Virus record (IMG/VR): IMGVR_UViG_3300050131_000019
Location: 1-64,000 of that record
DNA from: an uncultured virus (IMG/VR IMGVR_UViG_3300050131_000019)
Lineage: Duplodnaviria > Heunggongvirae > Uroviricota > Caudoviricetes
Reading direction: 5' to 3' (one strand)
DNA: 64,000 nucleotides
This document shows, piece by piece, positions 3,205 to 49,016 of this stretch. The notes under the pieces are model-generated. The model saw only the letters and a program-made list of their open reading frames with translations. It did no database searches and was not told the origin of the DNA. A program made the translations under genes and the position numbers. How positions within the stretch are numbered: position 1 is the stretch's first letter; the number at the start of each line of letters is the position of its first letter.

Positions 3205-3278
3205 TGGTTCCGGGTCCACGAATCGAACGTAGGTTAGGAGGATCAAAACCTCCTGTCTTACCACTAAACGAACCCGGA
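3205..3278 (-). tRNA. trnQ: tRNA-Gln (anticodon TTG), CCA encoded
   Basis: Acceptor TCCGGGT/ACCCGGA plus A-CCA. Anticodon arm GGAGG-TTTTGAT-CCTCC. T-loop GTTCGATTC. D-loop AGTGGTA. Confidence 0.93.
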
Positions 3279-8009: not shown

Positions 8010-8314
8010 TGCCCTTCAAACCCGGAGTTAATCCCAATCCCAATAGGCATATCCCTGACCCGGATATCCCTCCCCCAGCCAAAAAGTACCAGCAGAAAAA
8101 ATCTGCCATCAACCGTCTTTTGTCCATAGCCCTGAACATAGCCGAGAACGAGAGTATCGGGGAGGCCCAGAGGCTGGCGGCGGTCAAAATCGGCTCGGAG
8201 TTGTGGAGCAAACGCCCTGCGCCCCGCCGTAAATCGGAAAAGGAGAAGCTGCTCATTAGTGCTTTGCAAGGTTCTAAGCCCAAAAAGAAAGCCCCCGCCG
8301 AGGCAGGAGCTTAG
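8009..8314 (+). CDS. Small basic hypothetical protein
   Basis: SD GAGG, TAATG coupling to the upstream gene, N-terminus MPFKPG. Confidence 0.65.
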   Translation: MPFKPGVNPNPNRHIPDPDIPPPAKKYQQKKSAINRLLSIALNIAENESIGEAQRLAAVKIGSELWSKRPAPRRKSEKEKLLISALQGSKPKKKAPAEAGA

Positions 8315-8930: not shown

Positions 8931-9170
8931 TCATGACGCCTCCTGCCAAATTTCGTGGTTGCTACGTTCGTAGAGATACCCGCACCGGGCCGCTAGAATG
9001 GTCTGGGCATCTTCCGGAAGGGTTGAGTATACCGAGCACCAAGGGAGTTTGTATACGGTGCCCTCTAGGTACTCATTTTCGAGGTAGTCGTATACAGCTT
9101 TGTGGCTTTCTGCCTCATACCTTAGGTAGACATGAAGCAGATCACGGGTTAACGAAACGTAAAACGTCAT
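8931..9170 (-). CDS. Hypothetical protein downstream of ribozyme R1
   Basis: SD AAGGAGG then ATG at 9170. Confidence 0.7.
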   Translation of the reverse strand: MTFYVSLTRDLLHVYLRYEAESHKAVYDYLENEYLEGTVYKLPWCSVYSTLPEDAQTILAARCGYLYERSNHEIWQEAS

Positions 9171-9181
9171 ACTTCCTCCTT

Positions 9182-9233
9182 GGATGATTGGTAAACGCAC
9201 ACCGTCGCCTCGTGTAGGCTCATCCTTGACGGC
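9182..9233 (-). ncRNA. Minimal HDV-like ribozyme R1
   Basis: GCCGTC AA GGATGA GCC TACACGA GGC GACGGT GT GCGTTTA CCAA TCATCC. P1 opens with G-U; P2, P3, P1.1 (AC/GT) and J4/2 CCAA are all present. Confidence 0.88.
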
Positions 9234-9260
9234 AACCCCGATATTGCTCGGGGCGGGCAG

Positions 9261-10226
9261 TTAATTCACGTTGTCCAAAACGGTTTCGAGGTCCAAATTT
9301 TTTGAGGCCCACCTATCCACAGAGGCTTCCAGAGGGATACCAAGTTTGCGGCACATCACTGCGATCTGCTGAGCAAACTCCACGGCCACGTTCTTGTCGT
9401 AGTCCCGGCCAAAATCTTCGGCCATAACCTCGGCGGCTAGTGCTCCGGAGAGTTCCGCAAAAATTTTGAATTTCGCCAGTAGCTTTACGGGTGAGTTCTC
9501 TGCGATGCTCTTCTTCTCCTTGGGGGGTTGACCTTGGGCCTCTTCCACCTTTTCCTTGACATCTTTTACTTTCAACTTCTCCCCGGACTTCTCCTTAGCC
9601 TTAATCAGCTTGTCCTGATCGACGGGCTGAAGCTTGGATAGCTGAAGAGCAGCCGATGTGGAAAATTCTCCCTTGCGGAGCTTGTCCTGTGCTTCTGGGG
9701 AGAGTTCCAAGAGCTTCTGGCGCTCCTTGACCCAAGCAACAGCCTTAGCCAGCTTCTCTGGGGTATCCGCTCCGGGGAAGTACTTCTTGGCAATTTCCTC
9801 TACGCCTTTCCCGAACTTGTGTTGGTAGACAGAGATGCAAAAAGCGTCATCGAGGGGGTTCACGTCAGTTCTGTTGCGATTTTCCGCCACGGTAAGGTCA
9901 AGGGCCTCTTCTTCTGACTTTACTGCGGAGTAGTTGAACTTCAGCTTGATCTTCTTAGCCGGGTCTGAAATCGCCCTGTTAAGCTGCACGATAGCCCGGA
10001 GCCTGCGATGCCCGGCAATCAGCACAGGCCACCCTTCCACCGTTTTGCAAGCTATGGCAGCAATGAGTTGACCACGGTGCAGGATATCATCTGCAAGCTC
10101 GGATACGTCTGTCTCTTCACTTCGACCGCTGAGTTCCGGCTTGATGATTACATTTTCAGGGGCAACAACATACCCGCCATTTGCAGTGCGGTCCACTCCA
10201 GCTTCTTTACAGAAAGTTACAGCCAT
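9261..10226 (-). CDS. ParB/Srx-domain protein
   Basis: ELADDI..GQL..LIAGHRRLRA..AENRNRTDVNPLDDA, followed by an HTH-like region. Confidence 0.88.
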   Translation of the reverse strand: MAVTFCKEAGVDRTANGGYVVAPENVIIKPELSGRSEETDVSELADDILHRGQLIAAIACKTVEGWPVLIAGHRRLRAIVQLNRAISDPAKKIKLKFNYSAVKSEEEALDLTVAENRNRTDVNPLDDAFCISVYQHKFGKGVEEIAKKYFPGADTPEKLAKAVAWVKERQKLLELSPEAQDKLRKGEFSTSAALQLSKLQPVDQDKLIKAKEKSGEKLKVKDVKEKVEEAQGQPPKEKKSIAENSPVKLLAKFKIFAELSGALAAEVMAEDFGRDYDKNVAVEFAQQIAVMCRKLGIPLEASVDRWASKNLDLETVLDNVN

Positions 10227-10424
10227 GTTATTCCTCCACGGAATCCGACAAATACTTTGTGATGGACCCTACCAAGCTCTCAGCCGGGTCCGAGTTTGAA
10301 ACCTTGAAGCCACTCCCTTTCAAATAAGTATAGACTTGGTGGAAAGCCTCATCTACACTACTTTTAATGAGAGGGTCACTAAGTTCGTACCGCGTGTGCC
10401 AATATCTTCCTTCTGGGGTTATGC

Positions 10425-10718
10425 TCATTTTTCCCTCGGTAGCGCGGTTTCAGTACGGAAAGGTTCAAAGCTGAGAGACAGGTAGGTGGTATTACCTTCC
10501 CATCGGTCTGTTCGGGCGTGGAATCCCCCGGTACTTACTGACCCGTGTCCCTTGTGCTTCGAGTTAAGTGCGTCTGTGAGAACCGTTCGGGCTGTACTCA
10601 CTAGGTCTTCAAGAGAGGGGGGTCCGTAGAAGTATTGCCAGTCAACGGACTCCATGTAGGCTTTAACCTTGTGGAAGTCAAACTTGTCGAGAGTTTCTTG
10701 AATCACGTTTTGCTTCAT
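10425..10718 (-). CDS. Hypothetical protein, paralog of 4270..4602
   Basis: FDFHKVKAYM..W..TGGF. Confidence 0.75.
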   Translation of the reverse strand: MKQNVIQETLDKFDFHKVKAYMESVDWQYFYGPPSLEDLVSTARTVLTDALNSKHKGHGSVSTGGFHARTDRWEGNTTYLSLSFEPFRTETALPREK

Positions 10719-10742
10719 TTTTTTTTCCTCACTTTCAGAGTC

Positions 10743-11015
10743 TCACGAGATTTCGCTCGTGTCAAGAAAATTTTTAATGTCCATCGCATCATATAGATGC
10801 CGCTTTCGCGCCGCAATTTTTTTCGGTAAGAGAATTTTTTCATCTTGCGGCACTCCAGTTTTTCCAAGGTGGAACTTTTTGCACAGCGGACACCTGTAGG
10901 TGTGTAAGAATTCTGCGCCGGGTAACTCTTTTCGGCGCATTTCCAGCATCACACTCTTAGCAAGGTCCTCACTTCTGTATTTCCGTTTTCCGGAAGAGCA
11001 GAGTCTGGATTTCAC
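10743..11015 (-). CDS. Small zinc-finger protein
   Basis: C..GKRKY..YRCPLCKKFH. Lies downstream of ribozyme R2. Confidence 0.7.
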   Translation of the reverse strand: MKSRLCSSGKRKYRSEDLAKSVMLEMRRKELPGAEFLHTYRCPLCKKFHLGKTGVPQDEKILLPKKIAARKRHLYDAMDIKNFLDTSEIS

Positions 11016-11032
11016 AATTTGGCCCTCTTTCT

Positions 11033-11084
11033 AGATCATTGGTAGTTGCACACTCTCGCCGCGTGTAGGCTGATCCGTGAGAGC
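11033..11084 (-). ncRNA. Minimal HDV-like ribozyme R2
   Basis: GCTCTC AC GGATCA GCC TACACGC GGC GAGAGT GT GCAACTA CCAA TGATCT. Confidence 0.88.
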
Positions 11085-11707
11085 TACCCCCATACGCTGG
11101 GGGCGGGCGGCTGGTAAACAGTTACTGTTGTTCTGGAGTCCTTGGGGGACAAAGCCTTCATTACCTGTGCAATCTGTTCCCTTACTTCGGAAACCTTGCG
11201 GAGGAACAGGTCGTGCCCGAAGTAGGAGGTTTTTGTGAGGTCTGCAAACCACGGAGTTTCTATATCCCACTTTTTGAGGGTACCTATGTAGACGGTAAGG
11301 TCCCTTGTCCTCGGGTCTGTGGTGAGGTCTGTATGGACCAAAAGAAAGGCTGATACTTTGTTCTCTACCCCGTTCCCTGCCCTATTGTGGATTTCGATCA
11401 GGATAAAGGGCGACCCTTTGGGGGCCTCGGAGATAATGCGGAGAACGTCCACATCGTCTTTTGCCGATACGAAACTGTAAGTGTTGGGGGTTTTAGATTT
11501 CACCGGATTCCTCTCTTCGTACTGCTTGTCTGCGGTCTGTCTCGCCTTTAGCTCGTCTGGAGTTTTATTCAGAATCGCGGCGTGGTAAAGATGAACCCAG
11601 TTGTCGTGCGAAACAATTTCTTCCCAACTGTCATTTCCACAATACGCGGCACGATATAGCCGCGCCTTCTCGTATTCTTCGGGGGTGTGCTTTCCAGAAT
11701 AGTTCAT
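11084..11707 (-). CDS. Hypothetical protein whose TAG stop overlaps G1 of ribozyme R2
   Basis: SD AAGGAG, ATG at 11707. N-terminus related to 11704..11934 and 28034..28279. Confidence 0.7.
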   Translation of the reverse strand: MNYSGKHTPEEYEKARLYRAAYCGNDSWEEIVSHDNWVHLYHAAILNKTPDELKARQTADKQYEERNPVKSKTPNTYSFVSAKDDVDVLRIISEAPKGSPFILIEIHNRAGNGVENKVSAFLLVHTDLTTDPRTRDLTVYIGTLKKWDIETPWFADLTKTSYFGHDLFLRKVSEVREQIAQVMKALSPKDSRTTVTVYQPPAPSVWG

Positions 11708-11934
11708 TTCTTCTCCTTGACAAGTTCTTTGAAAAACTTGTCGGTTAACTCTTTCGCTTTGAGTTCCGTGGGGGTTTTGGCCTGCACGTATAGCTTGTAC
11801 CAGATATCCGCTTCCGTACCCTTCCAAGGTACTTTTCCAAAATTGTACTGGTCAAGCCAAATCTCTTGGTACTTGAGGCCGATTTCGAGTTGCTTCTTGG
11901 TATATTTCAAATTTTCCCTCCATTCGGTCCACAC
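11704..11934 (-). CDS. Hypothetical protein
   Basis: Packed ORF with paralogous KY..Q..W.KLY..T.TEL.AK motif. Confidence 0.65.
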   Translation of the reverse strand: MWTEWRENLKYTKKQLEIGLKYQEIWLDQYNFGKVPWKGTEADIWYKLYVQAKTPTELKAKELTDKFFKELVKEKK

Positions 11935-12461
11935 TTACCGTCGATGTAGTCGAGCCAACGTTTCCTGTTGAAGTTAGGATTCCGGGATTGGCAGAATTCT
12001 GCTAGCTCCCGAACTTCCCCGTTCTTGAAGAGATCAATCCTCCACCGACCTCTGCGGATAACGTTTGCGAGTTCGATAAAGTCCTGATTTGACATACTCA
12101 CGCTCCCTCCAGTGCTTCCTGGATTACTTTTTTGAGTTCTTCCTCATCAAAAACATAAAAGTTGTTCCCTACGTAGGGGTGGACTCTTTCCTCTTGATCC
12201 AAGATTTCCTGCGCGATTTTCTTGGTCAAACGTTCTAAGTTGTTTCCAGTGAATTTCATTTTCTCCTCCCGTGTACTCCCTTGTTGCAGTGACAAACATC
12301 TGTTATGCCGTGGCTTAAATTCCGTTTTCCGGAACACTTGGCATGATAGTTAGCTTTACAGTAACTACAAGACCCAGATTTCCGGCTAGGTGTAGGGGCT
12401 TCATTTACTGGAAGCCCCAATTTTATGGTCTGATCGATTATCTCAGTTAGCGTTCGGCGTG

Positions 12462-12659
12462 TCAAGAGGCTTCTCCGTTCAGGACAGCCAAAAGGTTGTT
12501 AAGCAGGTTGTTATCCTCAACAAGATCAGACTTGTGAGATGCAAACTGGAGAGTCTGTTTATTTTCCCAATTCAGACTTCCGGCAAAAGTACAGGGCTGG
12601 ACGGTATATAACAAACTTCCGTCTCGGTACCAAACACCCTCTTTGTAGTCAATTTTCAT
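12462..12659 (-). CDS. Hypothetical protein downstream of ribozyme R3
   Basis: SD AAGGAGG. Confidence 0.7.
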   Translation of the reverse strand: MKIDYKEGVWYRDGSLLYTVQPCTFAGSLNWENKQTLQFASHKSDLVEDNNLLNNLLAVLNGEAS

Positions 12660-12670
12660 ACACCCTCCTT

Positions 12671-12722
12671 AGACTCTTAGTAGGTGCTCAGCCGCGCCAC
12701 GGGAAGGCGAGTCTTTGCGGCC
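12671..12722 (-). ncRNA. Minimal HDV-like ribozyme R3
   Basis: GGCCGC AA AGACTC GCC TTCCCGT GGC GCGGCT GA GCACCTA CTAA GAGTCT. P1.1 TC/GA, J4/2 CTAA. Confidence 0.9.
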
Positions 12723-12744
12723 ACCCGGATTTCTCCGGGGCTAG

Positions 12745-13038
12745 TTACACGAAGGAATACAAGCACTCGAACTCTTCGTCGTAGAGGATTCCGCAGCGGT
12801 GGATGTCAATCAAATCCGCCTCCGTAGCAACTTTTAGGAGTTCCCTTATGTTTGTTTCCAGAAAAATTTCATCGTGCCCGGCATTACTGACCATATCACT
12901 ATTCCCCGGAACCAGTTTATCCAGTAAGAGAAAGCCGTGTAGGTCAGGCCGGTTGCTCAACTTGTTCTCGATACGGTCAAACTTCAAGAACTCGTCGTCG
13001 TGGTCTTTAAAGAATTGGTGTAACTCTTCCTGTTTCAT
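12745..13038 (-). CDS. Hypothetical protein
   Basis: SD AGGAG, packed ORF. Confidence 0.75.
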   Translation of the reverse strand: MKQEELHQFFKDHDDEFLKFDRIENKLSNRPDLHGFLLLDKLVPGNSDMVSNAGHDEIFLETNIRELLKVATEADLIDIHRCGILYDEEFECLYSFV

Positions 13039-13039
13039 G

Positions 13040-13537
13040 TTAGCTCCTAATCCAGAAATCTGTATCTCCGAACGACACTAGACTGTAGTCGTACTGAAGT
13101 TCCCTTGCCGCTCTTTCCCAGTCAATGCCGGTATACGGCCAAGAGTTAGATACTTTGTGGTCCAGCATTCCGCAATCCTCGGCTAGCTGCTGCGCGTACT
13201 CTTCAAAGTAGCTGTCCCGGATAAGTGTCTCACCCGAGTCCTAATCGGAGTAGCCTTCGCACTCTTCAGCCAGTTCCTTGAGAGTCTTGAGTTCTTCCCC
13301 GTCTTCGGACTCGTCCCACTCCTCAAGTTCTTTCTGGGCCGCAGAGAGAGTCTCTCCTAGAGTTTCCAGTTCCTTGGCATCACTCGCCAACACACTGGTA
13401 TCGTCGGTAGCGTCTGTTATGGTTTCTTGCGCCCCGTCAACCGCATCGACCAAGGACTGTCTCTCGGATTCGAGTTCCTCAATCCGCTCGATAACGTCTC
13501 GGCTGTCAATCACGTCGTCAAAGTTACTGATGCTCAT
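13040..13537 (-). pseudogene. Acidic ArdA-like antirestriction-type protein interrupted by an in-frame TAG at 13241-13243
   Basis: Frame continues past the stop: GYSD*DSGETLIRDSYFEEYAQQLAEDCG..WPYTGIDWERAARELQYDY..FWIRS, ending at TAA 13040-13042. Confidence 0.7.
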
Positions 13538-13545
13538 ACGTCCTC

Positions 13546-13899
13546 CTAGACTACCTGTGCAATGGTTGGAAACACGTTTTCTTCGGCTGTCTCACTCAGA
13601 ACGGCAACTATATCTCCCAACACCCGAAAGTTTTCCCCGTATCCGTTGAGACGGTATACTCTCATGTTCACCACGTTTTGGGTGTGTGGGTTGGGGGCCA
13701 ACCCTAAAGAAACGCCGTCTTCGTTTGCATACAACTGTTTGCAATTCCTAATCCCCGGAACCAAGGATTCAATGTAGCCTCCGACAGCTTTCTGAAGCTC
13801 CTTGAAGTCAAACTTCTTTCCGTTTTCCGGTTGGACTTTGATCGTGCGGCCATCTGTCTTGAAGATGTACCCGCGCTGAACTTTCTTTACTGCGGTCAT
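13546..13899 (-). CDS. DUF3846-like protein downstream of ribozyme R4
   Basis: ELQKAVGGYIE..ANEDG..N..VLGDI. Confidence 0.75.
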   Translation of the reverse strand: MTAVKKVQRGYIFKTDGRTIKVQPENGKKFDFKELQKAVGGYIESLVPGIRNCKQLYANEDGVSLGLAPNPHTQNVVNMRVYRLNGYGENFRVLGDIVAVLSETAEENVFPTIAQVV

Positions 13900-13904
13900 G
13901 TTTT

Positions 13905-13981
13905 CTCCTCGGGTATTTGGTAGTTACGCAGCCACCCCTCGTGCCGGGATACCCTTGTGGCCTGCCGGATAACGCTCCGGC
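13905..13981. repeat. 77-bp exact direct repeat, copy 1 (hairpin, ribozyme, SD)
   Basis: Identical to 17481..17557. Confidence 0.95.
13911..13962 (-). ncRNA. Minimal HDV-like ribozyme R4
   Basis: GGCCAC AA GGGTAT CCC GGCACGA GGG GTGGCT GC GTAACTA CCAA ATACCC. P1.1 GC/GC. Confidence 0.82.
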
Positions 13982-14175
13982 TAGCGGTTGACTATCATCC
14001 ACACGAAACTAGACTGATGTTTCCATTGTCGTCCGACCCAAAGTTTTCTTTAGCGAAGACAATAGCCTCCTGTTTGGTGGAGAAAATGCCAACATTCCTG
14101 AAAGGTATATCCGGATCACCAAGAGACTCCTCATCGGGGATATCAACGTACCACCGTTTTTCGTAAACGTCAAAA

Positions 14176-14679
14176 TCAGTCATCTTCTTCCTCCTCTTCC
14201 GTGTAAGGCGTGAGTGGTGGGTTCTCGGGGACGGCGGAGATTGCTTCCTGCTTTACTGTTTCCAATCCATAAAATCCCCAGCAGGAGTCAACGTCAGTTC
14301 CTTCCCCGTCTTCAATGATAAATCCGTAAACATCCCCAGATAGGTACTGGTTCCAAGTTTCAACCATACCCTCAGCGTATTTCCGGGTATCTGGGGTCTC
14401 GTCGCGCTTGACTACCACGAATCCGATCTGGCCGGAATCAAACCCCATGTAGTAGTGATCCAAGCTGGCTAAGGAAAGATGAACCCCGCCATGAATCAGG
14501 GCTTGCAGGGGGAATACATCATACTCTTCCTCCCACTCTGAAAGATTCTCTCCGATATCCGAGGCGTATTCTCCGTTTGGCCCCTCAACTTCAAAGTAAC
14601 GGTTCCGGGTGGTTACGATAAAGCATTCTTCGTCCCCCTCAAAGGGGCATTCGGCATCAAAGTCTTGCTCAATAGTCAC
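14176..14679 (-). CDS. Acidic hypothetical phage protein
   Basis: DSGQIG..WNQYLSGDVYGF..DSCWGFYG. Confidence 0.75.
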   Translation of the reverse strand: MTIEQDFDAECPFEGDEECFIVTTRNRYFEVEGPNGEYASDIGENLSEWEEEYDVFPLQALIHGGVHLSLASLDHYYMGFDSGQIGFVVVKRDETPDTRKYAEGMVETWNQYLSGDVYGFIIEDGEGTDVDSCWGFYGLETVKQEAISAVPENPPLTPYTEEEEEDD

Positions 14680-14953
14680 TTTGTAGCCATTGTGCGTGAA
14701 GGTTTCGGTTGAGTCGTTTCTCCTACAAGCCTGACTTTCTCCAGCAAACTAGCTGGCACTGAAATTTGGTCCCCGGTCTCCCACTCAACAAACACCAGCA
14801 TCTTGCGCGGGTCCGGGTATACACTCTTACCGTGGAACCCTTCGATCATCCGGCAAACTCCCTTGTTCCCCGGACCTATGCCGGTATAGAAGTCATATCC
14901 GGTAGTCCGAACTACGTCGCCTGCTTGAAATTTCATAAATCCTCCACTTTTCG

Positions 14954-15027
14954 ATTGTCGCACAAATTTTCAGGTTTGTCAAACGTTGTGTTTTCAACGG
15001 TTTGCAACGTTTTCCACAGTTTCCACA
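14954..15027 (-). promoter_or_regulatory. Early promoter with upstream IHF-like site and DnaA-box-like 9-mers
   Basis: TTGACA-17-GACAAT (14982-14954). Plus strand shows TTTCAACGGTTTG and TTTTCCACA (15010-15018). Confidence 0.65.
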
Positions 15028-15043
15028 GTTCCGGAAAACGGAA

Positions 15044-15409
15044 TTACCTCGCCCGGTAAACTGGAACCTCCGCCAGTTTGAGACAAAGGGCGGCGGCGAG
15101 GCGATGGTTTCCCTCTAGGTTATCTCCACTTAGAGAGAGAGGATGATCGATTCCGCGCTCCTCTACTTCACTAATAAGCTCCTCTCCGGCAAACTTTTTG
15201 AGTCGTTCGTGGCTCCACCCCCGGAATACCACTGCGGCATTTCGTATTTCTTCGGGGCGCAGATAGACAAATTCCCAATCCGTCTCTCCCCGTTTCTCGT
15301 AGGAATCCAGAAGACAGCGGGCATCGTCGGAACTCTCGGGGTCCGGGATATTCTGCCAAGTACTAAATATGGTCCCCGGCTCTGGATTGTACGGCGATCT
15401 GGGTTTCAT
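15044..15409 (-). CDS. Small ParB-N-like domain protein
   Basis: GIDHPL..LEGNHRLAAA..VPV. Confidence 0.6.
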   Translation of the reverse strand: MKPRSPYNPEPGTIFSTWQNIPDPESSDDARCLLDSYEKRGETDWEFVYLRPEEIRNAAVVFRGWSHERLKKFAGEELISEVEERGIDHPLSLSGDNLEGNHRLAAALCLKLAEVPVYRAR

Positions 15410-15978
15410 TCCGCACTCCCTCTGGTATGTACCCAACATACCGCTTGTAGGTCGCGGGGAGAAATTCCCCCTATCCAGCGAGAAGCCTCTTGGTAGCTGG
15501 CTTCCATTTCGAGATACATCCTGCCCCCAATGGCAATAGCTGTACACAAAGGATTCGCCGCTCTAGCGGCCCAAACGTCGATGGTGCATACGTATGAGTT
15601 TCCGGTAATGTTCTTGAAGAATCTTTGTACTTTCAGCCAACGGTTACAGCGAGTACCTGATGTGAAAGTCTTCATCGGGTCTTCCCCGTTAGCAATGTTC
15701 CACGCCTTGTTAATGTTCATGTAGGTTCCGGCCACGCTCGGTATGATTTGTGACCCATTATCCGCCGCCCGGATAATCAACCTAGCCCCTTTCACGTTTG
15801 TTTCCCATGTTTGTCTGGGGGATAGCGCGGCTATTACACCGGCACCCCTGTTAACATCTTTTGGGCAGAGTTCCCTTGCAAGAGATTCTGCGCGGCCATA
15901 CCATTCCCGGCCAGCCCGCAACTCATCTTTACTGGCCGAGGAATAGCATTTGATTATGTTACGGACAAAAGGTTTCAT
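15406..15978 (-). CDS. Hypothetical phage protein, possibly DNA-glycosylase-like fold
   Basis: GREWY..AGVIAALSP..W..N, TIDVWA, LQAVCW. Confidence 0.7.
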   Translation of the reverse strand: MKPFVRNIIKCYSSASKDELRAGREWYGRAESLARELCPKDVNRGAGVIAALSPRQTWETNVKGARLIIRAADNGSQIIPSVAGTYMNINKAWNIANGEDPMKTFTSGTRCNRWLKVQRFFKNITGNSYVCTIDVWAARAANPLCTAIAIGGRMYLEMEASYQEASRWIGGISPRDLQAVCWVHTRGSAE

Positions 15979-16187
15979 TACTCCCCCAGAAAGTCTTTGA
16001 CAATTTCCGCAAGCTCTTCCCAAGTGTCTAAGGAGTCTTTGTAGGCCCGTACTGACGCGTCGTTTGCAGAAGTGTGGTGGGGCAGCATGTAGTCTCCGTC
16101 TATCCGAAGTTTGTGCCCATCTTTTCGAGTTACCGTTAGGACGGGCTGATCCCCGTAAATGTTGATTTCTAAATCAAGTTTTGCCAT
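15978..16187 (-). CDS. Hypothetical protein downstream of ribozyme R5
   Basis: SD AAGGAGG. Confidence 0.7.
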   Translation of the reverse strand: MAKLDLEINIYGDQPVLTVTRKDGHKLRIDGDYMLPHHTSANDASVRAYKDSLDTWEELAEIVKDFLGE

Positions 16188-16199
16188 TATTCCTCCTTT

Positions 16200-16258
16200 G
16201 GAGATTGGCCGGATTGCTCCGTTTCTAGCCCCGCTACGTAGAAGCTCTCCTTGGGGCC
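16200..16258 (-). ncRNA. HDV-like ribozyme R5 with a short P4 stem
   Basis: GGCCCC AA GGAGA GCT TCTACGT AGC GGGGCT AG AAA CGGA-GCAA-TCCG G CCAA TCTCC. P1.1 CT/AG, GNRA-capped P4. Confidence 0.9.
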
Positions 16259-16275
16259 ACCCCGTAACCGGGGGG

Positions 16276-16917
16276 TTAATCCTTATTCCTTTCCCTATTC
16301 ATGCTGTTTACTGCGTCTTCTCCTTCTTGGTCCATTGCACCCCAGAGGATAGTGTCAAACTCTCCGTTGCAGTTACTATCCTCCATGATGTCATATTCGT
16401 TCCACTCTCTTTGTTCGAGGAAAGCATCAATCAGTGTTCTGATCTGGTTGTGGTCCCACTCTGAAACATTTTTGGGCCACTCCGACAGATTTGAAGAGTA
16501 GAAGCTAAGAAATCCATCATAGCTGGTGAATTTCTCTTTAACTACCTTCCGAAGAACTTCTTTATCCGCCCCCGTGTACAATCTCTTTACCGCAGCGGCG
16601 GGTATTGTCAGGAAAATCCGGTCGGTAGCGAAGTTGTATGCTCGGGGGGATTCCAAAGCGTCCCACTTCGCGTTGAGGTCAATCTTCGTCTCATCCTTGA
16701 ACCACGCGCAAAAGTTTTCTGCGTACATTTTGGCATATTCCCTGTACGCCTGCTGCCAGTTGATATGCTCCCACAGTTCGAGCGGCTCACCTTCGGAGTC
16801 TGCCAGAGGAATCTGATCTCCGTGGTCATCTTCGGTTATTTGCTCACAAGCCTTATCTAGCTCAGAATTATGGATAGAGTTGTAGAATCCGGAAAACGGA
16901 ATTGTTGCTGTCGGCAT
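16276..16917 (-). CDS. Acidic hypothetical phage protein
   Basis: FSGFYNS..SPRAYNFATDRIF..SYDGFLSFYS, SD GGAGG. Confidence 0.8.
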   Translation of the reverse strand: MPTATIPFSGFYNSIHNSELDKACEQITEDDHGDQIPLADSEGEPLELWEHINWQQAYREYAKMYAENFCAWFKDETKIDLNAKWDALESPRAYNFATDRIFLTIPAAAVKRLYTGADKEVLRKVVKEKFTSYDGFLSFYSSNLSEWPKNVSEWDHNQIRTLIDAFLEQREWNEYDIMEDSNCNGEFDTILWGAMDQEGEDAVNSMNRERNKD

Positions 16918-16925
16918 GATACCTC

Positions 16926-17174
16926 CTACACAAACTCAGTTACGGTTAGTATGTTTTGCAGGAGAACAGACTCCTGCCGGTTATGCGCCTTGATGCTAGA
17001 GGCCACCAGAAGCGCGGTAGGATGAGATATGCCCTCAAGCTCAATTACCAGAGAACCTTCCTCTACCCCTTTCCACGCTCCGGTAGCCTTGTACATCGTG
17101 TAGCCCTCGACTAGCCCGGAGAGAATCTTCTTGATTCCCTTCACATTTTTGCGCTCTGTAAAAATTCTGTACAT
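16926..17174 (-). CDS. Hypothetical protein
   Basis: SD GGAGG and ATG at 17174, just downstream of the promoter at 17222-17194. Confidence 0.65.
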   Translation of the reverse strand: MYRIFTERKNVKGIKKILSGLVEGYTMYKATGAWKGVEEGSLVIELEGISHPTALLVASSIKAHNRQESVLLQNILTVTEFV

Positions 17175-17193
17175 GTTTTCCTCCACTTTTTGA

Positions 17194-17278
17194 ATCGTAC
17201 CTGAAATTTTTAGGTTTGTCAACCAGCGAAAACAAAAGACTTAGCAACGTTTTCCACAGGTTTTCAAGGTTTTGCACA
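17194..17278 (-). promoter_or_regulatory. Early promoter with DnaA-box-like 9-mers upstream
   Basis: TTGACA-17-TACGAT. TTTTCCACA at 17250 and TTTTGCACA at 17270. Confidence 0.65.
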
Positions 17279-17280
17279 GG

Positions 17281-17475
17281 CTAGAATTTTCGGGCATCAA
17301 CTATCACGTTGCAGACCGGCTCGGTCCAGAAGCTAAACGTGTAACCACATTCTGGACAATTGTCTGTCCAATACCCCGCAGAGGGGTTGTCATAGAAGTC
17401 CAGCGAAAGACTCTTATCACACGCAGGGCACTTGAAGTTTTCCGTGTTTCCTGCGTTTTCGCCAACTACAATCAT
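17281..17475 (-). CDS. Zinc-ribbon protein downstream of ribozyme R6
   Basis: CPAC..CPECG, SD GAGGAGG. Confidence 0.7.
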   Translation of the reverse strand: MIVVGENAGNTENFKCPACDKSLSLDFYDNPSAGYWTDNCPECGYTFSFWTEPVCNVIVDARKF

Positions 17476-17480
17476 AAATC

Positions 17481-17557
17481 CTCCTCGGGTATTTGGTAGT
17501 TACGCAGCCACCCCTCGTGCCGGGATACCCTTGTGGCCTGCCGGATAACGCTCCGGC
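17481..17557. repeat. 77-bp exact direct repeat, copy 2
   Basis: Identical to 13905..13981. Confidence 0.95.
17487..17538 (-). ncRNA. Minimal HDV-like ribozyme R6 (identical to R4)
   Basis: Same 52 nt as R4. Confidence 0.82.
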
Positions 17558-17962
17558 CCGGTTATCGGAGAACTATTGCCAAGATGAGCAAGAGCAAACC
17601 TACAGAAGCTACGAACAGAACAGGAAACCAACTGACTGTTATGGGAGAATTTCTCAGTTTCTTCATCTACCACACCTTACTGAGAAAGTGCCAAGCCACT
17701 ATACCAACCACAATCCAGAAGCCAGCACCTAGAATGAATACCGCGCCCCACGCAACAAGAAACTCTGTATTAACCTCCTGTCGTCTCATACTTCCTCCTC
17801 GTCAGTCAGTTCCGTTTCTGCGGCAGCACGGAAGGCATCATCGGCTGCACCATAGGCGTCTGATCCTGTCCGGTATATGCAGTTTTGCGCCATTTTTTCA
17901 GACCCAGAAGGGTCTATTACAATGATTTTTACCACCCAAATATCATTCATACTTCCTCCTTT

Positions 17963-18016
17963 GGGTAATCTGTAAACTCCAACACCCACGCCACTTGACG
18001 GCTTACCCGTGTGGGC
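17963..18016 (-). ncRNA. Minimal HDV-like ribozyme R7 (most divergent copy)
   Basis: GCCCAC AC GGGTAA GCC GTCAAGT GGC GTGGGT GT TGGAGTTTA CAGA TTACCC. P1.1 has only 1 bp. Followed by AAAGGAGG and ATG at 17950. Confidence 0.75.
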
Positions 18017-18047
18017 TACCAGATTACGGCTCTGGCTGGCCGGTAGA

Positions 18048-18581
18048 TTAGAAAGAGTAGTCTTCTGCCTCTGTGCGGGTGAGGAAGAAATGAATTCCGG
18101 AACCACATACTGTCCAACGGTTTTCATTCCAGCCGTTGAGCGGCACTACCGTCTCTCCTTTTCGGTAGGTAATAACCCCGTACTTTCCCCCGCTTTTCGC
18201 TTCTTCGGCCCCCACCACTTCGAGGACTACTGCTTTAGAGCACCGGCACTTGCGCCCCGCCCCGTGGCTTCTCTTAGCGTCTTCTGTGATGAGGAGTTTT
18301 ACCAGAATACCGCCGCTACATTTCTTCCACCCCACGAAAGACCCCTCTTCCGGAAGGAACTGTATCTGTGCTACAGCCCTTTCTGCGTTTTCGGCTCCGG
18401 ACAGGTCGGCTCCGTACAGGTTGGCTCCGTACAGGTTGGCTCCGGACAGGTTGGCTCCGGACAGGTAGGCTCCGTACAGGTTGGCTTTTGCTGCCATCGC
18501 CGCAACAACCAATTCGGTAATTGTCTTAGCGGCCTCAAGAGTAAACAAGACCGCTCCATAAACGTTTTTCAGTTCCATCAC
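18048..18581 (-). CDS. Pentapeptide-repeat protein with DUF5758-like C-terminal domain
   Basis: A(N/D)L(Y/S)G repeats, then GWKK..RKCRCSKA..CGSGIHFF. Confidence 0.88.
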   Translation of the reverse strand: MMELKNVYGAVLFTLEAAKTITELVVAAMAAKANLYGAYLSGANLSGANLYGANLYGADLSGAENAERAVAQIQFLPEEGSFVGWKKCSGGILVKLLITEDAKRSHGAGRKCRCSKAVVLEVVGAEEAKSGGKYGVITYRKGETVVPLNGWNENRWTVCGSGIHFFLTRTEAEDYSF

Positions 18582-18837: not shown

Positions 18838-18903
18838 AGCATTTCTGAAACTTTCGTTGTTGTCAAATCCGTTTATTTTCAACGGCTTGCAGCGTTTTCC
18901 ACA
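18838..18903 (-). promoter_or_regulatory. Early promoter with IHF-like and DnaA-box-like element
   Basis: TTGACA at 18866-18861 with a weak -10. TTTTCAACGGCTTGCAGCGTTTTCCACA at 18876-18903. Confidence 0.55.
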
Positions 18904-19172
18904 GCCCAACGGGGAATATCTCCAACGGTTCCAATCTTCTTCCATACAGGCTGATTTGTCACCCGGCTACCTCACTCTCTCATTACAGCGGTTGTAGATT
19001 GGTTCGGAGGCATCCACATACTTCTGGATGGCGGGGGAATACTTCGGCTCCGCCAAGAAGTTTAAGATACGCTGTGCGAAATGCCCTGCGTCTGTTTCCC
19101 CGTCGAGCCACAGGCTAGTTCCATCTTCCCGGACGATCTCAGCACAATTGTAATTGAGGCTTATTGTTCCCT

Positions 19173-21021: not shown

Positions 21022-21922
21022 CAATCTTTACAGCGAATTGACTATGCGCAAGCTTTACAGTGACAACCTAGTACAGGGGATGTGACATGAGCGAATGCAA
21101 GCTGCGAGGCGACACGCGAACGGTGGGCAAGTAGCTGGGCCTTGCTCTGGTATTCCGTGCGTGACACGCTACCATCGGACCGCGCTGTGACGCTGTAATA
21201 TGCAGGCATAGACCGCACAGCTTGTACAGGCCGGGATGGTACGTGGAAGTGCACGCTCGGGGCGTGAGGGCCAAACGTAGCAGGATGGGGCTGTATGATG
21301 CGCGTCTGAATCATAGCGAAGCCTTTCCATACAGGATAACTTCGAGAGTTTCAGACAGCACGGTATGTCCATTGCCGTCACCGTAGCCATAGGTCGTAAC
21401 GGCTATTACATTACCGTCACGCTCCGCTATCTTGACAGATAGCACGTCAAGAAAAAAATCGAGGTCAAGGTCTTGTGTTTCCATACACACTCCAAAAGCA
21501 AACCCCGCACCCATCAAGGGATACAGGGTTTTCGGCTTAGATAAAATGCCCCCGTACAGTCTCACAGACCCTACAAAGGCATTTTACCGTTTTGTTGTGT
21601 TCCGCGAATATGGCCCTTACATCTTTTGCGGCTAATCCGCTCCATTTTGCCGCAAGATTCCAGCACCGTGTCACGGTAGCACGCTGGTTTGAGTGGACTG
21701 GTAGACGCTATTGGATACCGCTACCAGTTCTGCAATATCCAAAGCGATTGAAACGGGCACGCTGTCCGATACCTGTACGGTGCGCCGTTCGGACAATTGT
21801 CCGATACGATTGACGATTACTTGGATGGTCATAAGACTCCAATGGGCTTGGATTGAATGGGCTTGTAACCATTCCGCCGCATTAACAGGGTAGCCGTTTA
21901 GCTTGCCCTGCTACTCTGCGAG

Positions 21923-22306
21923 TTACTTTACGACCGGGAGTGAAGCGAGATACTGCGCCGCCTTGACGCGCAAGTCGTTCGCCGGAACGATCTTTCCGTT
22001 TGGTGTTCCATCATCCTTGAGCAAGGGCTGTGCCGCGACAATCGCATCGGCGTTATCCCGAATGTAGGTAACAACCGTAGGGATAAAGGCGGCGATCTCA
22101 AGCCATTGACCCGGATACGCTGAAATGGGGAACTGCCCATTCACGCCATACAAGCCAACCGTGCCTCCCTTGACAGCCTTATGTGTGGCATCCGCCGCGC
22201 GGGGCGAGGAGTGTTTCACTGTGAGCTTGGTTGCCTTTGCTGCGGACTGCGCAACAATCTGCGCTTTCAAAGCTGCAATCTGTGTTTCCATTTCTTGCAT
22301 GGTCAT
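21923..22306 (-). CDS. Hypothetical protein
   Basis: KGGTVGLYGVNGQFPISAYPGQW motif, Ala-rich N-terminal helix. Confidence 0.75.
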   Translation of the reverse strand: MTMQEMETQIAALKAQIVAQSAAKATKLTVKHSSPRAADATHKAVKGGTVGLYGVNGQFPISAYPGQWLEIAAFIPTVVTYIRDNADAIVAAQPLLKDDGTPNGKIVPANDLRVKAAQYLASLPVVK

Positions 22307-45925: not shown

Positions 45926-48093
45926 ATGGCCTATACTCCCGCAGTAAATACAGTTACCAGTGGTAACTTTCCTAACGCTTTGGCCGTTTACTATGAGCGT
46001 AAAGCAATTCCAAACCTTAAAGCAAGCACTCCGTTTCTGGGGGCAACAAAGCAGTGGCCTTTGCCGAGGCACTCCGGTAACGTGATTCAGTTCTTCTCCT
46101 ATAACCTCTTGGGCGCGAATGTCTCTCAGACCACCGAGGGTTTCGTGGGTTCTCCTGTTCCCGAGAGCGCAGTCAAGATTCAGGCGACAATCGGTGAACT
46201 TGCTGCTTAACAGCTAACTGGCCGATATAAAATTCCGCTAAATCGGTGAACATCTGTGGTATAATGGTGTTATGCCAACAGAAAATACCGAGCTAACTCA
46301 AATGAAAGATCACACAAAAGCGTATATGGCCGGAGTCCTCGACGGAGACGGTCATCTAGGAATTCAGAAACACGGGCAGTATAGTCCTAGTATACAGGTT
46401 TGTGGTGAGTCTAAATCGCTTATGGAATGGATCGTCCTTAACTTTGGGGGATCAATCCGCAAAGAAAAAATCAAGAGCGGTAAAGACTTCTACAAATGGA
46501 TACTCTACGGGAAGAATTCTCAAAAAGATTTCGTAGAAGGTATCACACCTTTTGTGTTCATAAAAAGATCACAAGCAGAGATTCTCCAAGAGTTTCTTAA
46601 TATCAATCGGAGTGACTACGATCCGGAAAAGAGAGAATCTTACTATCTAGCAATTAGGAAAGCTAGATCATTGAGCAGCGTAGAGACTGACATGCGGAAC
46701 AAACTAGACAATAAACTGGCTTGCGCTTATGCGGCTGGTCTGGTTGATACAGACGGACACATAAATTTATACACGGTTCCCTCGGGAAAGTCTAAAGGTA
46801 GCATACGAACAGGAATAGAAATCGTAAATATCTATAGACCTATTCTCGATGAGCTAGCAAGGCAGTTTGGGGGTCACGTAAGGAAAAGAACAGAAGACGG
46901 GTACAAGACTCGGTATCAGTGGTTCGTTACTGATATGAAATCCGAGGAAAAACTCCTTCTGGCGATGCTCCCTTATATGATTGTGAAGAGAGAAAAAGCA
47001 GAAAATCTTCTCAAGCACCTCCGAGAAAGACTTAGTTTGAAGATACAGCCCGAACTCATAGGTGACTATGAGAGTGTCCCAGTGGGAACGCTGAAGACCT
47101 AAACACGTTTGCAATACGCTGATTACACCAATAGCTCTGACCTGTTCTTGGATACGGCGATTGACGACAAGGGCGCACTTAGCTCTTTGGCCGAGGAAAT
47201 GAACTATCGCCTCGCCCTCACCCTGAATCTGTTGGTCTCCACGGCTGCGGATTCTCTGAATGGCATCGACGGTTCTGTGAATCAGCAGTTGGCAGTCGGT
47301 ACCTATCTTACCGCGTCGAACCTGCGTACCATCGCTCAGCAGCTTGAGTCGGTGAACGTTCGTCCGTTCGAAGCCAACACCTACGCCGGGGTTATCAATC
47401 CTCTGGTTGTGCATGATATCTATAATGACGCCAGCTTCAACGGCCTCACGGATATCATGAAGCGCCAGTCCGATTCTTCGAAGAAGTTGTTCGAAGGTCT
47501 GGATCGTGACGCCCCTCTGGAGTTCGCGGGTATTAAGTTCAAGAGCACCACAACCGCATCGGCTGTGACCATCTCTTCGAACATTTACTATCCCACGTAC
47601 ATCTTCGGTGACGATGCTCTTCTAAGTATCTTCCTCGGTCCTAATCCGGCTGACAAGAACAAGAAGAACTACTCACTGAATATCCAGATGGCTCCCGAAG
47701 GCGGCTCGGTCTCCGACCCGGCTCGCTTGATTGGTGAACTTGCTGCTTAAGCAGCTAATCGGCCAATCTAAAACTCAGCTATATCGGTGAACCTCTCCTA
47801 AAATTTTAGGAGACAATACCGAGGGAAGACTAGGGAAAGTACCTAAACCTAGAACCCGTAACGACTAATACGCTGGGCCTTCGAAAGAAGTGAAGATAGA
47901 GTCTGAGCTATACGGCGACGTATAGAGTGTCTCCGGGGTGATCCGGGGGTGGATTAAGTCCACGATGACCTGAAAAGGCATCTCCAAAACGCAACTGGGG
48001 TGGATTTCATATAACTGTAAGTTCGTGGTCACGCCTCCGCCCGGAGTAGTTATGAGGGCACGCAAGCTCCTGAGCCAGACGTCTTCAAGCTAA
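45926..48093 (+). CDS. Major capsid protein (N4-gp56-like), join(45926..46195,47112..47735,47998..48093), about 329 aa
   Basis: Splicing gives in-frame junctions QATIG|QYADY and PARLIG|GWISYN. An alternative 3' site at G47991 would add QL. Confidence 0.88.
46196..47111 (+). mobile_element. Group I intron 1 in the capsid gene (916 nt) carrying a LAGLIDADG ORF
   Basis: P1 ATCGGT/GCCGAT with U-G at the splice site. P3 TTCCGC/GCGGAA. P4 TCGGT/ACCGA. R element GTAGAGACTG, S element AAGATACAGCC. P9 CTCATAG-GTGA-CTATGAG. Terminal G. Confidence 0.9.
46272..47102 (+). CDS. Double-motif LAGLIDADG homing endonuclease
   Basis: YMAGVLDGDG and YAAGLVDTDG. Confidence 0.92.
   Translation: MPTENTELTQMKDHTKAYMAGVLDGDGHLGIQKHGQYSPSIQVCGESKSLMEWIVLNFGGSIRKEKIKSGKDFYKWILYGKNSQKDFVEGITPFVFIKRSQAEILQEFLNINRSDYDPEKRESYYLAIRKARSLSSVETDMRNKLDNKLACAYAAGLVDTDGHINLYTVPSGKSKGSIRTGIEIVNIYRPILDELARQFGGHVRKRTEDGYKTRYQWFVTDMKSEEKLLLAMLPYMIVKREKAENLLKHLRERLSLKIQPELIGDYESVPVGTLKT
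47736..47997 (+). mobile_element. Group I intron 2 in the capsid gene (262 nt, no ORF)
   Basis: P1 GATTGGT/GCCAATC. P3 CTCAGC/GCTGGG. R element GTAACGACTA, S element AAGATAGAGTCT. P9 CTATACG-GCGA-CGTATAG. Confidence 0.9.
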
Positions 48094-48140
48094 ACAAAAC
48101 AAAGGACTTATAGTTTATAGAAAATATTTTCTATAAGTCC

Positions 48141-48169
48141 TTGACTCAGTGAAGTTTTCGTGGTATAAT
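48141..48169 (+). promoter_or_regulatory. Sigma70-like promoter
   Basis: TTGACT-17-TATAAT with extended TG. Confidence 0.78.
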
Positions 48170-48263
48170 GTAGTTAGGATCAAACTTCCGGTGTCATGAA
48201 CCGGAACACCCGAGGGGAGTTAGCTCCTACTTTCTCCCCTCAAAAATTCTTCTAGGAGGAAGA

Positions 48264-49016
48264 ATGTACGATATTTACGAATATACGAATCTAATTAATA
48301 ACAAGAAGTATGTCGGGCAGAGTATAGATAAAGATACCCGGAGACGGCAGCACTTATACGAGGCTAAAAGGGGTTCTACCTGTCCCTTTCATCGTGCCAT
48401 AAGAAAATACGGAATAGATAACTTCTCTTTTAGAATTATTGAATCTGTAGATACTCAAAAAGGCGCTGACGATCAAGAAGACTTTTGGATAAACGAACTA
48501 GACACGCGAAGCCGGGATCGAGGATATAATCTCAGGGGTGGGGGGATAGCAGGTCTCTTAGCTGAAGAGAGTAAGCAAAAAATCAGTAATTCTCTTACTG
48601 AGTACTACTCCGATGAAAAGAACCGCGAAACTATTAGGGATTCCTTGAAGAATTACTATGAGCAGAACCCGGATCGTGTAGAGAAGATACGGGAGGAGTC
48701 CAGAGAGAATATAAAGGAAAGAAAGAGAAATGACTTGGGTCAACTTCTTCCGTCTTCGGGTGTTCCCGTTCCCGAGAAGACTCCAGAGGAGAAAAAAGCT
48801 ATTAATAAAAGAAAAAGCGAAATGATGCTTTCCAAGTCTCCCGAAGAAAAGGCTCGGATCAGCAAGAAGTTAAGTGATGCCCAGAAAGCCAGATATGCTG
48901 CTATGACCCCGGAAGAAAAAGAAGCCTTTTGTAAAAGAAAACGAGAGATTTCAGTTGCATATCACGCCAAAAAGAAATCAGGAATCCAATGCACAGTAGC
49001 CCAAGAAAATTCGTAA
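48264..49016 (+). CDS. GIY-YIG homing endonuclease
   Basis: IYEYTN..KYVGQS..RRRQH..AIRKYG..GYNLRGGG, with NUMOD-like C-terminus. Confidence 0.88.
   Translation: MYDIYEYTNLINNKKYVGQSIDKDTRRRQHLYEAKRGSTCPFHRAIRKYGIDNFSFRIIESVDTQKGADDQEDFWINELDTRSRDRGYNLRGGGIAGLLAEESKQKISNSLTEYYSDEKNRETIRDSLKNYYEQNPDRVEKIREESRENIKERKRNDLGQLLPSSGVPVPEKTPEEKKAINKRKSEMMLSKSPEEKARISKKLSDAQKARYAAMTPEEKEAFCKRKREISVAYHAKKKSGIQCTVAQENS

Follow-up and report, generated by a model that had tools for sequence, protein, structure and literature searches.

The stretch of DNA analysed here (the window) comprises bases 1-64,000 of a 77,775-bp virus record, IMGVR_UViG_3300050131_000019, which is rated 68% complete and belongs to a tailed phage. 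On the minus strand of its left arm lies a run of small genes, mostly not assignable to a family, with a ParB-like gene at 9261-10226. Seven short elements with the fold of the ribozyme from hepatitis delta virus (HDV) stand at gene junctions of this run, each between a hairpin on its upstream side and a Shine-Dalgarno (SD) sequence on its downstream side. We list them in the order of transcription, together with their hairpins and one open reading frame (ORF) whose stop codon straddles a predicted cut. In the list, G1 is the first base of the ribozyme, L3 1/6 is the pair between positions 1 and 6 of loop L3, and R1 and R2 are covariance models described below.

17963..18016, minus strand: HDV-like ribozyme 1; predicted cut 5' of G1 at 18016, catalytic C at 17972; 35.5 bits with R1 and 29.8 bits with R2
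18018..18036, minus strand: hairpin, separated by 11 nt from the stop codon of ORF 18048-18578 and by 1 nt from the cut
17487..17538, minus strand: HDV-like ribozyme 2; predicted cut 5' of 17538, catalytic C at 17496; G·G at L3 1/6; identical to the 13911 copy
17540..17557, minus strand: hairpin ending 1 nt before the cut, after the stop codon (17564-17562) of a 34-codon ORF read by eye
16200..16258, minus strand: HDV-like ribozyme 3; predicted cut 5' of 16258, catalytic C at 16208; 5-bp P2, reversed P1.1, 4-bp P4; R1 matches the 5' part only (17.1 bits), R2 gives no match
16260..16273, minus strand: hairpin, separated by 2 nt from the stop codon of ORF 16276-16917 and by 1 nt from the cut
13911..13962, minus strand: HDV-like ribozyme 4; predicted cut 5' of 13962, catalytic C at 13920; G·G at L3 1/6
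13964..13981, minus strand: hairpin, separated by 13 nt from the stop codon of ORF 13995-14183 and by 1 nt from the cut
12671..12722, minus strand: HDV-like ribozyme 5; predicted cut 5' of 12722, catalytic C at 12680; canonical U·G; the copy closest to published theta rows
12724..12739, minus strand: hairpin, separated by 5 nt from the stop codon of ORF 12745-13038 and by 1 nt from the cut
11084..11707, minus strand: ORF of 207 amino acids, no known family, 9 codons longer than its homologues
11086..11104, minus strand: hairpin ending 1 nt before the cut, within the last codons of ORF 11084-11707
11033..11084, minus strand: HDV-like ribozyme 6; predicted cut 5' of 11084, catalytic C at 11042; canonical U·G; its G1 is the last base of the upstream UAG
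9235..9254, minus strand: hairpin, separated by 6 nt from the stop codon of the ParB-like gene and by 1 nt from the cut
9182..9233, minus strand: HDV-like ribozyme 7; predicted cut 5' of 9233, catalytic C at 9191; canonical U·G; follows the ParB-like gene

The first-pass annotation of the window had placed seven minus-strand HDV-like ribozymes at these coordinates, and we confirm them. Both strands of the record were searched with a descriptor that was composed after the elements had been seen (P1 of 6-7 bp opening with G; J1/2 of 1-7 nt; P2 of 5-7 bp; P3 of 3 bp; L3 of 7-8 nt with G at position 6; P1.1; and C-N-R-A before the 3' strand of P2). It returned exactly these seven in 77,775 bp and none in 14 dinucleotide shuffles, in strict or loose form. 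No further copy was found in the record with the descriptor or with either covariance model. In all seven, as in the layout first described for them, P1 has 6 bp and opens with G·U, the linker is 2 nt long, P3 has 3 bp, L3 consists of 7 nt with G at position 6, and C-N-R-A precedes the P2 3' strand. Under the descriptor all of them form the nested double pseudoknot of P1, P2, P3 and P1.1; in the 17963 copy P1.1 has U opposite U and amounts to one Watson-Crick pair only. G1 takes part in a G·U pair at the base of P1 in all seven and in 19 of 19 copies from outside the window, and every window copy has the catalytic C that opens J4/2, with A three bases on.

The six distinct sequences (the 13911 and 17487 copies are identical) differ through their stems and keep their pairing, as claimed. 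In four window copies, all 68 cells of P1, P2, P3 and P1.1 pair, with double changes in 11 of the 17 pairs. The description of the elements as minimal stands for six copies, which have a loop of 7-9 nt in place of P4; it does not stand strictly for the 16200 copy, because of its 4-bp P4. Model R1 represents P1 and P3 only and was built from four window copies, while R2 was built solely from copies on other contigs. R2 recovers six of the seven (E-values 3e-12 to 8e-5, the next match at 1.3) and misses the P4-bearing 16200 copy. Rfam yields no HDV-family match in the window at E-values up to 5, a negative that weighs little, the sensitivity of Rfam to minimal forms being unchecked.

The copies at 13911 and 17487 lie in an exact 77-bp repeat, 3,576 bp apart, which in one sequencing run assembles as a contig of its own at about twice the depth (58 versus 32-34). 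No alternative letters occur in any of the seven ribozymes in the contigs of four DNA runs. An origin by artefact or chance was considered and is ruled out by the descriptor search with its shuffles, the covariation and the recovery by R2.

It had also been claimed that no tRNA neighbours these elements, and this is borne out. None of the predicted cuts falls within 5 nt of a tRNA 3' end; the nearest copy is some 5.9 kb away from the sole tRNA of the window, a tRNA-Gln at 3205-3278 on the minus strand. This tRNA itself fills a narrow gap between the stop codon of an ORF and the SD of the DNA polymerase gene and could be a processing site too. At the level of sequence and predicted fold, the elements are confirmed as theta-like minimal HDV ribozymes that are not tRNA-adjacent.

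The copies are not alike in their predicted cores. The trans U·G pair between L3 positions 1 and 6 is present in four of the seven, with G·G in its place at 13911, 17487 and 17963. Natural HDV ribozymes always have U at L3 position 1, and a G·G mutant of the antigenomic ribozyme is active with a 470-fold lower k2 (PMC3386971). By analogy, the U·G copies (9182, 11033, 12671 and 16200) would probably cut fast and the G·G copies slowly or little, and the seven equivalent cuts first envisaged are not supported. The weakest is probably the 17963 copy, which combines G·G with the one-pair P1.1. Since the same G·G recurs in two outside copies (L007 and L099), it may be compensated.

Each ribozyme is part of a cassette, much as the annotation had it: a hairpin and an SD-like run accompany all seven. 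The GC-rich hairpin, which had been placed just upstream of G1, ends exactly 1 nt before it in seven of seven copies (-8.1 to -14.8 kcal/mol), and in six it sits 2-13 nt after a stop codon. Individual hairpin z-scores are modest (-0.6 to -2.8). On the other side the SD lies directly against P2. From P2 to the start codon there are 11-12 nt in six copies and 17 nt in the 11033 copy, where the SD site is weaker. We also considered the hairpins as intrinsic terminators and rejected the idea: none of the seven is among the 26 terminator-like sites, and none matches the U-run class. Many of the hairpin loops, both before the seven ribozymes and in the outside loci L005, L063, L068 and L099, start with G and end with A over 4-7 nt. 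They resemble extended GNRA loops, for which a docking or protein-binding role is possible.

A ribozyme of another class lies on the same strand, upstream of the seven:

21857..21920, minus strand: type-P5 twister ribozyme (Rfam RF02684, 51.6 bits; gathering score 37.6)

It begins 2 nt after the stop codon of ORF 21923-22306 and precedes the SD of ORF 21671-21832, and its P1 hairpin ends just before its cut. Seven HDV-like ribozymes and one twister thus stand in the same sense at gene junctions of the coding strand, flanking single genes or short blocks. A generic scan for twisters gives more than 123 loci. For hammerheads there is no Rfam match in the window, and counts of core-like patterns are near those of a reversed-pattern control both here and in 12 other records.

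What do copies in other genomes tell us? We found them with R1, both in related ParB-bearing loci and in loci selected by core patterns. Across 15 distinct outside copies, all 120 cells of P2 and P1.1 (both absent from R1) pair, and 27 double changes are counted; none of 500 shuffles scores as high, and slid partners pair in 35-48% of cells. This alignment covers 12 loci, three loci with insertions or deletions in P2 having been left out. The core pattern with the catalytic C occurs in 28 viral loci, 26 of which, including two from this phage, have the full fold. If A, G or T replaces the C, it occurs in 3 loci, none with the fold, and a pattern with an 8-nt L3 yields no new loci. Of 30 pattern matches in cellular genomes, a single one scores as genuine, located on a binned contig of 1.8 kb (L139); the others reach at most 17.4 bits.

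The surroundings were examined in 19 outside copies chosen on the core alone, with SD and start codon judged by eye. A hairpin ends 1-3 nt before G1 in 13 of them (1 nt in ten), an SD and a start codon follow 13, and 12 have both. Copies on phages with a ParB-like or portal homologue (41-67% identity) have the hairpin and SD cassette in ten of ten cases, in contrast to the outside copies that lack both, which makes the cassette a feature of this phage family and not of the ribozyme subfamily. Three copies are found in 13.5 kb of L005 and two in G002. The same subfamily also occurs in non-coding arrays of other phages (L082, L087, L088, L106 and L098), where some copies stand behind tRNA-like ends. 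L087 has two identical copies 143 nt apart, predicted to cut out small hairpin RNAs, and the copy of L082 follows a tRNA-like 3' half.

The junction behind ORF 11084-11707 can be compared among homologues of this gene (31-43% identity). The slot holds an HDV cassette in the window and in L046. In L002 it holds a hairpin, 1 nt, and a twister core with a broken P1 (twister-P1 E-value 4.6e-5, below the gathering score). L009 has a tRNA 6 nt after the stop codon, and L045 has no device, the next SD following directly. The slot therefore looks like a processing site with exchangeable devices, as HDV, twister, tRNA or nothing may stand behind homologues of one gene. A further case is gene 16926-17174, which has a promoter-like site ahead of it in the window and a ribozyme cassette ahead of it in L005 (55% identity). 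Devices that share only the creation of a new RNA end swap at one junction, and we regard this as the best evidence that the cut is used; the same comparison shows that the junction can do without any cut. Together with the ten of ten cassettes and the covariation in P2 and P1.1, the exchange strengthens the processing role first proposed for the cassettes. The L002 element (9061-9130) reads hairpin, one base, twister core with unpaired P1, SD and start codon, and is possibly a natural P1-less twister. P1-less twisters can be active. Elsewhere in L002 (2712-2775), an H-type pseudoknot was seen by eye between a stop codon and an SD; it has no Rfam match.

The cassettes share the minus strand with promoter-like sites of the sigma-70 type and a terminator-like site:

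17194..17222, minus strand: sigma-70-type promoter-like site in a ribozyme-free gap; 10/12; repeat families D2 and D10
14954..14982, minus strand: sigma-70-type promoter-like site in a ribozyme-free gap; 10/12, TG
12437..12465, minus strand: sigma-70-type promoter-like site; 11/12, TG
8289..8312, minus strand: intrinsic-terminator-like site that closes the gene run

The three largest ribozyme-free gaps hold the best promoter-like sites of the strand (17222, 14982 and 12465), which speaks against the single T7-like early polycistron of the first-pass annotation and suggests that cuts and fresh starts alternate. The scan found 23 sites compared to 16.5 in shuffles, a total that is not itself significant. 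A repeated 29-bp motif upstream of promoter-like sites (14991-15028, 17231-17279 and 18876-18904) is possibly an activator site. From their size, their variability and the host-type promoter-like sites, we infer that the small left-arm genes are early genes.

The reading we favour, and think probable with due reserve, is that the cassettes are self-cleaving HDV-like ribozymes that segment transcripts into pieces with protected ends; cleavage itself is predicted from what is known of the family. Each cassette runs from a stop codon through a short C-rich linker, a GC hairpin and one unpaired base to the predicted cut, and then through the ribozyme and SD to the start codon. The hairpin would fold first behind the RNA polymerase and could shield the ribozyme from misfolding with upstream RNA. 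The ribozyme would then cut 5' of G1. This would leave the upstream piece with a 3' end made of a stem and a single further base bearing a 2',3'-cyclic phosphate, resembling a terminator through which transcription continues. The piece downstream would begin with a 5'-OH on the base-paired G1 and carry a standard leader before its ribosome-binding site, like a fresh promoter start. Both new ends would be expected to resist exonucleases and the 5'-end route of RNase E. In this way the overlapping transcripts of the arm would be divided, with no host nuclease, into blocks of one to five genes whose ends are separately protected.

Several observations weigh against this reading. Five of the 19 outside copies have neither hairpin nor SD and belong to the non-coding arrays of other phages, and most carriers show a single copy, not an array. 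The close relatives G001 (98% complete, portal 67% identical) and G003 (47% complete) have no match with either model, nor do G004 and Tunturi_3, a Tunturiibacter phage; the cassette is thus dispensable. Folded as a whole, the cassettes are no stabler than shuffles (z from -1.45 to +0.50) with a program that cannot form pseudoknots. If the 470-fold drop carries over, the G·G copies, three of the seven, would be too slow for the lifetime of a messenger RNA (mRNA). A 5'-OH would protect only in part, as RNase E cuts such substrates inefficiently by its 5'-end route but can enter directly, independent of the 5' end (PMC4191395). Finally, ORF 11084-11707 passes the end of its homologues by nine codons and runs through the hairpin, and its UAG (11084-11086, minus strand) spans the predicted cut; no other letter is seen there in four runs, and the homologues stop before the hairpin. 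Cleavage would remove the last base of the stop codon and yield a message without one, which misfits a simple protection of the upstream message. The split stop could have arisen by accident in this lineage, or it could serve to limit that protein.

Of the alternatives, the one that survives best takes the cassettes for mobile junction modules, whose shared sequence lets genes of the variable arm swap, be deleted or be duplicated by recombination, in the manner of the PeSL cassettes discussed below; cleavage would be tolerated or mildly useful. We consider it unlikely as the main explanation, though it is compatible with segmentation. The exact 77-bp duplicate fits it, as does the presence of cassettes at different junctions of homologous genes across relatives and their absence from some. 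One contig of run X19 has other sequence from the start codon (17474) behind the 17487 cassette, a weak pointer of 25 letters. Against it, the six copies differ through their stems and still pair, which destroys the identity needed for recombination and points to selection on the RNA fold and the catalytic C; nor is a joint between the two identical copies listed in four runs.

The cassettes might instead be decay timers, in which cleavage uncouples genes and starts turnover, shutting off early genes, and in which the cut at 11084 yields a stopless message whose product is tagged by transfer-messenger RNA (tmRNA) and degraded. The split UAG at 11084 and the differences among copies in the rate-setting L3 1/6 pair would fit, and there is a precedent in glmS, where cleavage is followed by degradation (PMC6765202). 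But a strong hairpin flush with the new 3' end, found in 20 of 26 HDV copies, and a base-paired 5' end suit protection and not decay, and the read-through at 11084 may be a recent accident of the lineage, given that the homologues stop earlier. We hold decay as the purpose to be rather improbable. It is tempting to go further and view the array as an RNA-only timing programme, in which fast U·G and slow G·G copies differ in when they cut a shared set of transcripts, and in which translation is linked to the cut at 11084: ribosomes passing through the hairpin might gate the ribozyme, or the split stop might lead to tmRNA-directed decay. This extension is speculative, and the odds seem to us clearly against it; if it were true, the phage would stage its early genes by ribozyme kinetics, beyond segmenting them.

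It is more doubtful still that the elements are spacers that mostly stay uncut in the cell and serve as exonuclease roadblocks and standard leaders. The three copies with the slow G·G, one of these with a one-pair P1.1, would agree with such a role. The catalytic C, which is present in all 26 folded loci with no folded locus lacking it, argues otherwise, as do the four copies with a full canonical core and the twister or tRNA that fills the slot in relatives.

Ends with 5'-OH and 2',3'-cyclic phosphate suit RtcB-type ligation. That the pieces between two cuts are ligated into circular mRNAs is nevertheless very improbable, even though the predicted end chemistry would allow it and a PF09414 RNA ligase is found in three of five records searched, because RtcB was found in none of the five (three of them incomplete), the PF09414 ligase also occurs in the ribozyme-free G001 and did not turn up in this record (68% complete), stems bury both ends, and circles from hammerhead clusters have been sought with none found (PMC3088659).

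Compared with known systems, what is new in segmentation by these cassettes is the HDV class in this role, the fixed geometry, and one predicted cut that splits a stop codon; the fold and the concept are already known. In the T7 early transcript, RNase III cuts between early genes and leaves hairpin-ended, separately translated messages with 5'-P and 3'-OH. The predicted cuts of the window, between putative early genes, would likewise leave hairpin-ended messages. They differ from those of T7 in being protein-free, in their 5'-OH and cyclic phosphate ends, and in the presence of several internal promoter-like sites with no single leader transcript. The phage itself, unlike T7, is an SU10-type podophage with no RNA polymerase among the 70 ORFs scanned.

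Minimal HDV-like (theta) ribozymes of Caudoviricetes are known, including 526 matches away from tRNAs that have no assigned function and mostly lie more than 200 nt from an ORF (PMC10879173). The window copies resemble theta ribozymes (Kienbeck et al. 2024, PMC10879173) in their 6-bp P1, short J1/2, P3 of mostly GCC/GGC, 7-nt L3 and C-N-R-A, in the lack of P4 in six of seven, and in belonging to a tailed double-stranded DNA phage. Their predicted cut falls 1 nt behind a stem, as theta ribozymes cut behind the tRNA acceptor stem. They differ in having no adjacent tRNA, in coming from peat and not from gut, in numbering seven in 9 kb, and, with respect to the published non-tRNA cases, in their placement from stop codon to SD at protein-gene junctions (PMC10879173). 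An L3 pattern of U, N-C, N-C-G-Y, read from 127 published non-tRNA rows, fits only the 11033 and 12671 copies, and five of the seven depart from it. The loop words of the six P4-less copies find no matching ribozyme in 7,704 published non-tRNA rows; the published list with coordinates for all minimal ribozymes may include them.

Clustered hammerheads flank prophage genes, cut in vitro and in E. coli, and were proposed to cut phage polycistrons (Perreault et al. 2011, PMC3088659); the same suggestion has been made for twister (reviewed in PMC6765202). With this proposal published in 2011 and the 526 non-tRNA theta matches already listed, the conceptual novelty first implied for the array is not supported. 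Both systems have several ribozymes flanking single genes or short blocks of variable genes. Unlike a hammerhead, the HDV ribozyme remains intact on the piece downstream of the cut and requires a hairpin of separate origin upstream, and the cassettes have a fixed stem plus 1 nt and a fixed spacing from P2 to SD; cleavage is demonstrated for the hammerheads and predicted here (PMC3088659). Our literature search, which covered few subscription papers, found no report of HDV-like arrays at phage protein-gene junctions.

Two further comparisons are instructive. RiboJ, an engineered insulator of ribozyme and hairpin before the ribosome-binding site, raises mRNA about twofold and protein 2-10-fold in E. 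coli (PMC6206723). As with RiboJ, self-cleavage, here predicted, would give a standard structured 5' end right before the ribosome-binding site. RiboJ is derived from a hammerhead and used once per construct with its hairpin downstream, whereas the window cassettes are natural and repeated and have their hairpin on the upstream piece (PMC6206723). The PeSL (promoter-stem-loop) cassettes of T4-type phages can mediate gene shuffling (PMC2839356). They too are small regulatory cassettes repeated between non-essential genes of a variable region, but they combine promoter and terminator and are conserved as DNA, while those of the window are conserved as an RNA fold with a catalytic core (PMC2839356).

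The window encodes a terminase, a portal and an adaptor of the SU10 type, and a major head protein, which place the phage in Caudoviricetes; its major head gene is split, and it also has a family-A DNA polymerase. The region is held by 20 listed sequencing runs from 17 studies, all peat metagenomes and none recorded as RNA. By its portal, the nearest isolate is the Tunturiibacter (Acidobacteriota) phage, at an identity of only 31%. No relative of the ParB-like protein was found in species genomes, the polymerase matches are uninformative on the host, and the DUF7178 gene returned no loci as a search bait. Other features of these genomes were noted in passing. At 46272-49016 on the plus strand, the region of the major head gene is interrupted by a pair of group I intron-like matches accompanied by endonuclease genes of the LAGLIDADG and GIY-YIG types. 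The gene at 13040-13537 on the minus strand, 55% identical to an intact gene of L005, is broken by an in-frame amber codon at 13243-13241, with no other letter in the contigs of four runs; recoding looks unlikely, since other genes of the arm end in TAG. The nearest isolated phage, Tunturi_3, has a permuted tmRNA match (L004 38272-38496), and two RNA ligases and an RNA 2'-phosphotransferase are annotated in it.

The purpose of self-cleaving ribozymes in bacteria and phages is stated to be open (PMC6765202; for non-tRNA theta ribozymes, PMC10879173). For the HDV class, this locus offers an easily tested answer: the cassette at its protein-gene junctions is fixed, a single genome supplies six natural variants of it, and the slot is naturally exchanged for twister, tRNA, promoter or nothing. 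The cassettes, each under 100 nt, are also a source of natural insulator parts and of G·G core variants for ribozyme chemistry.

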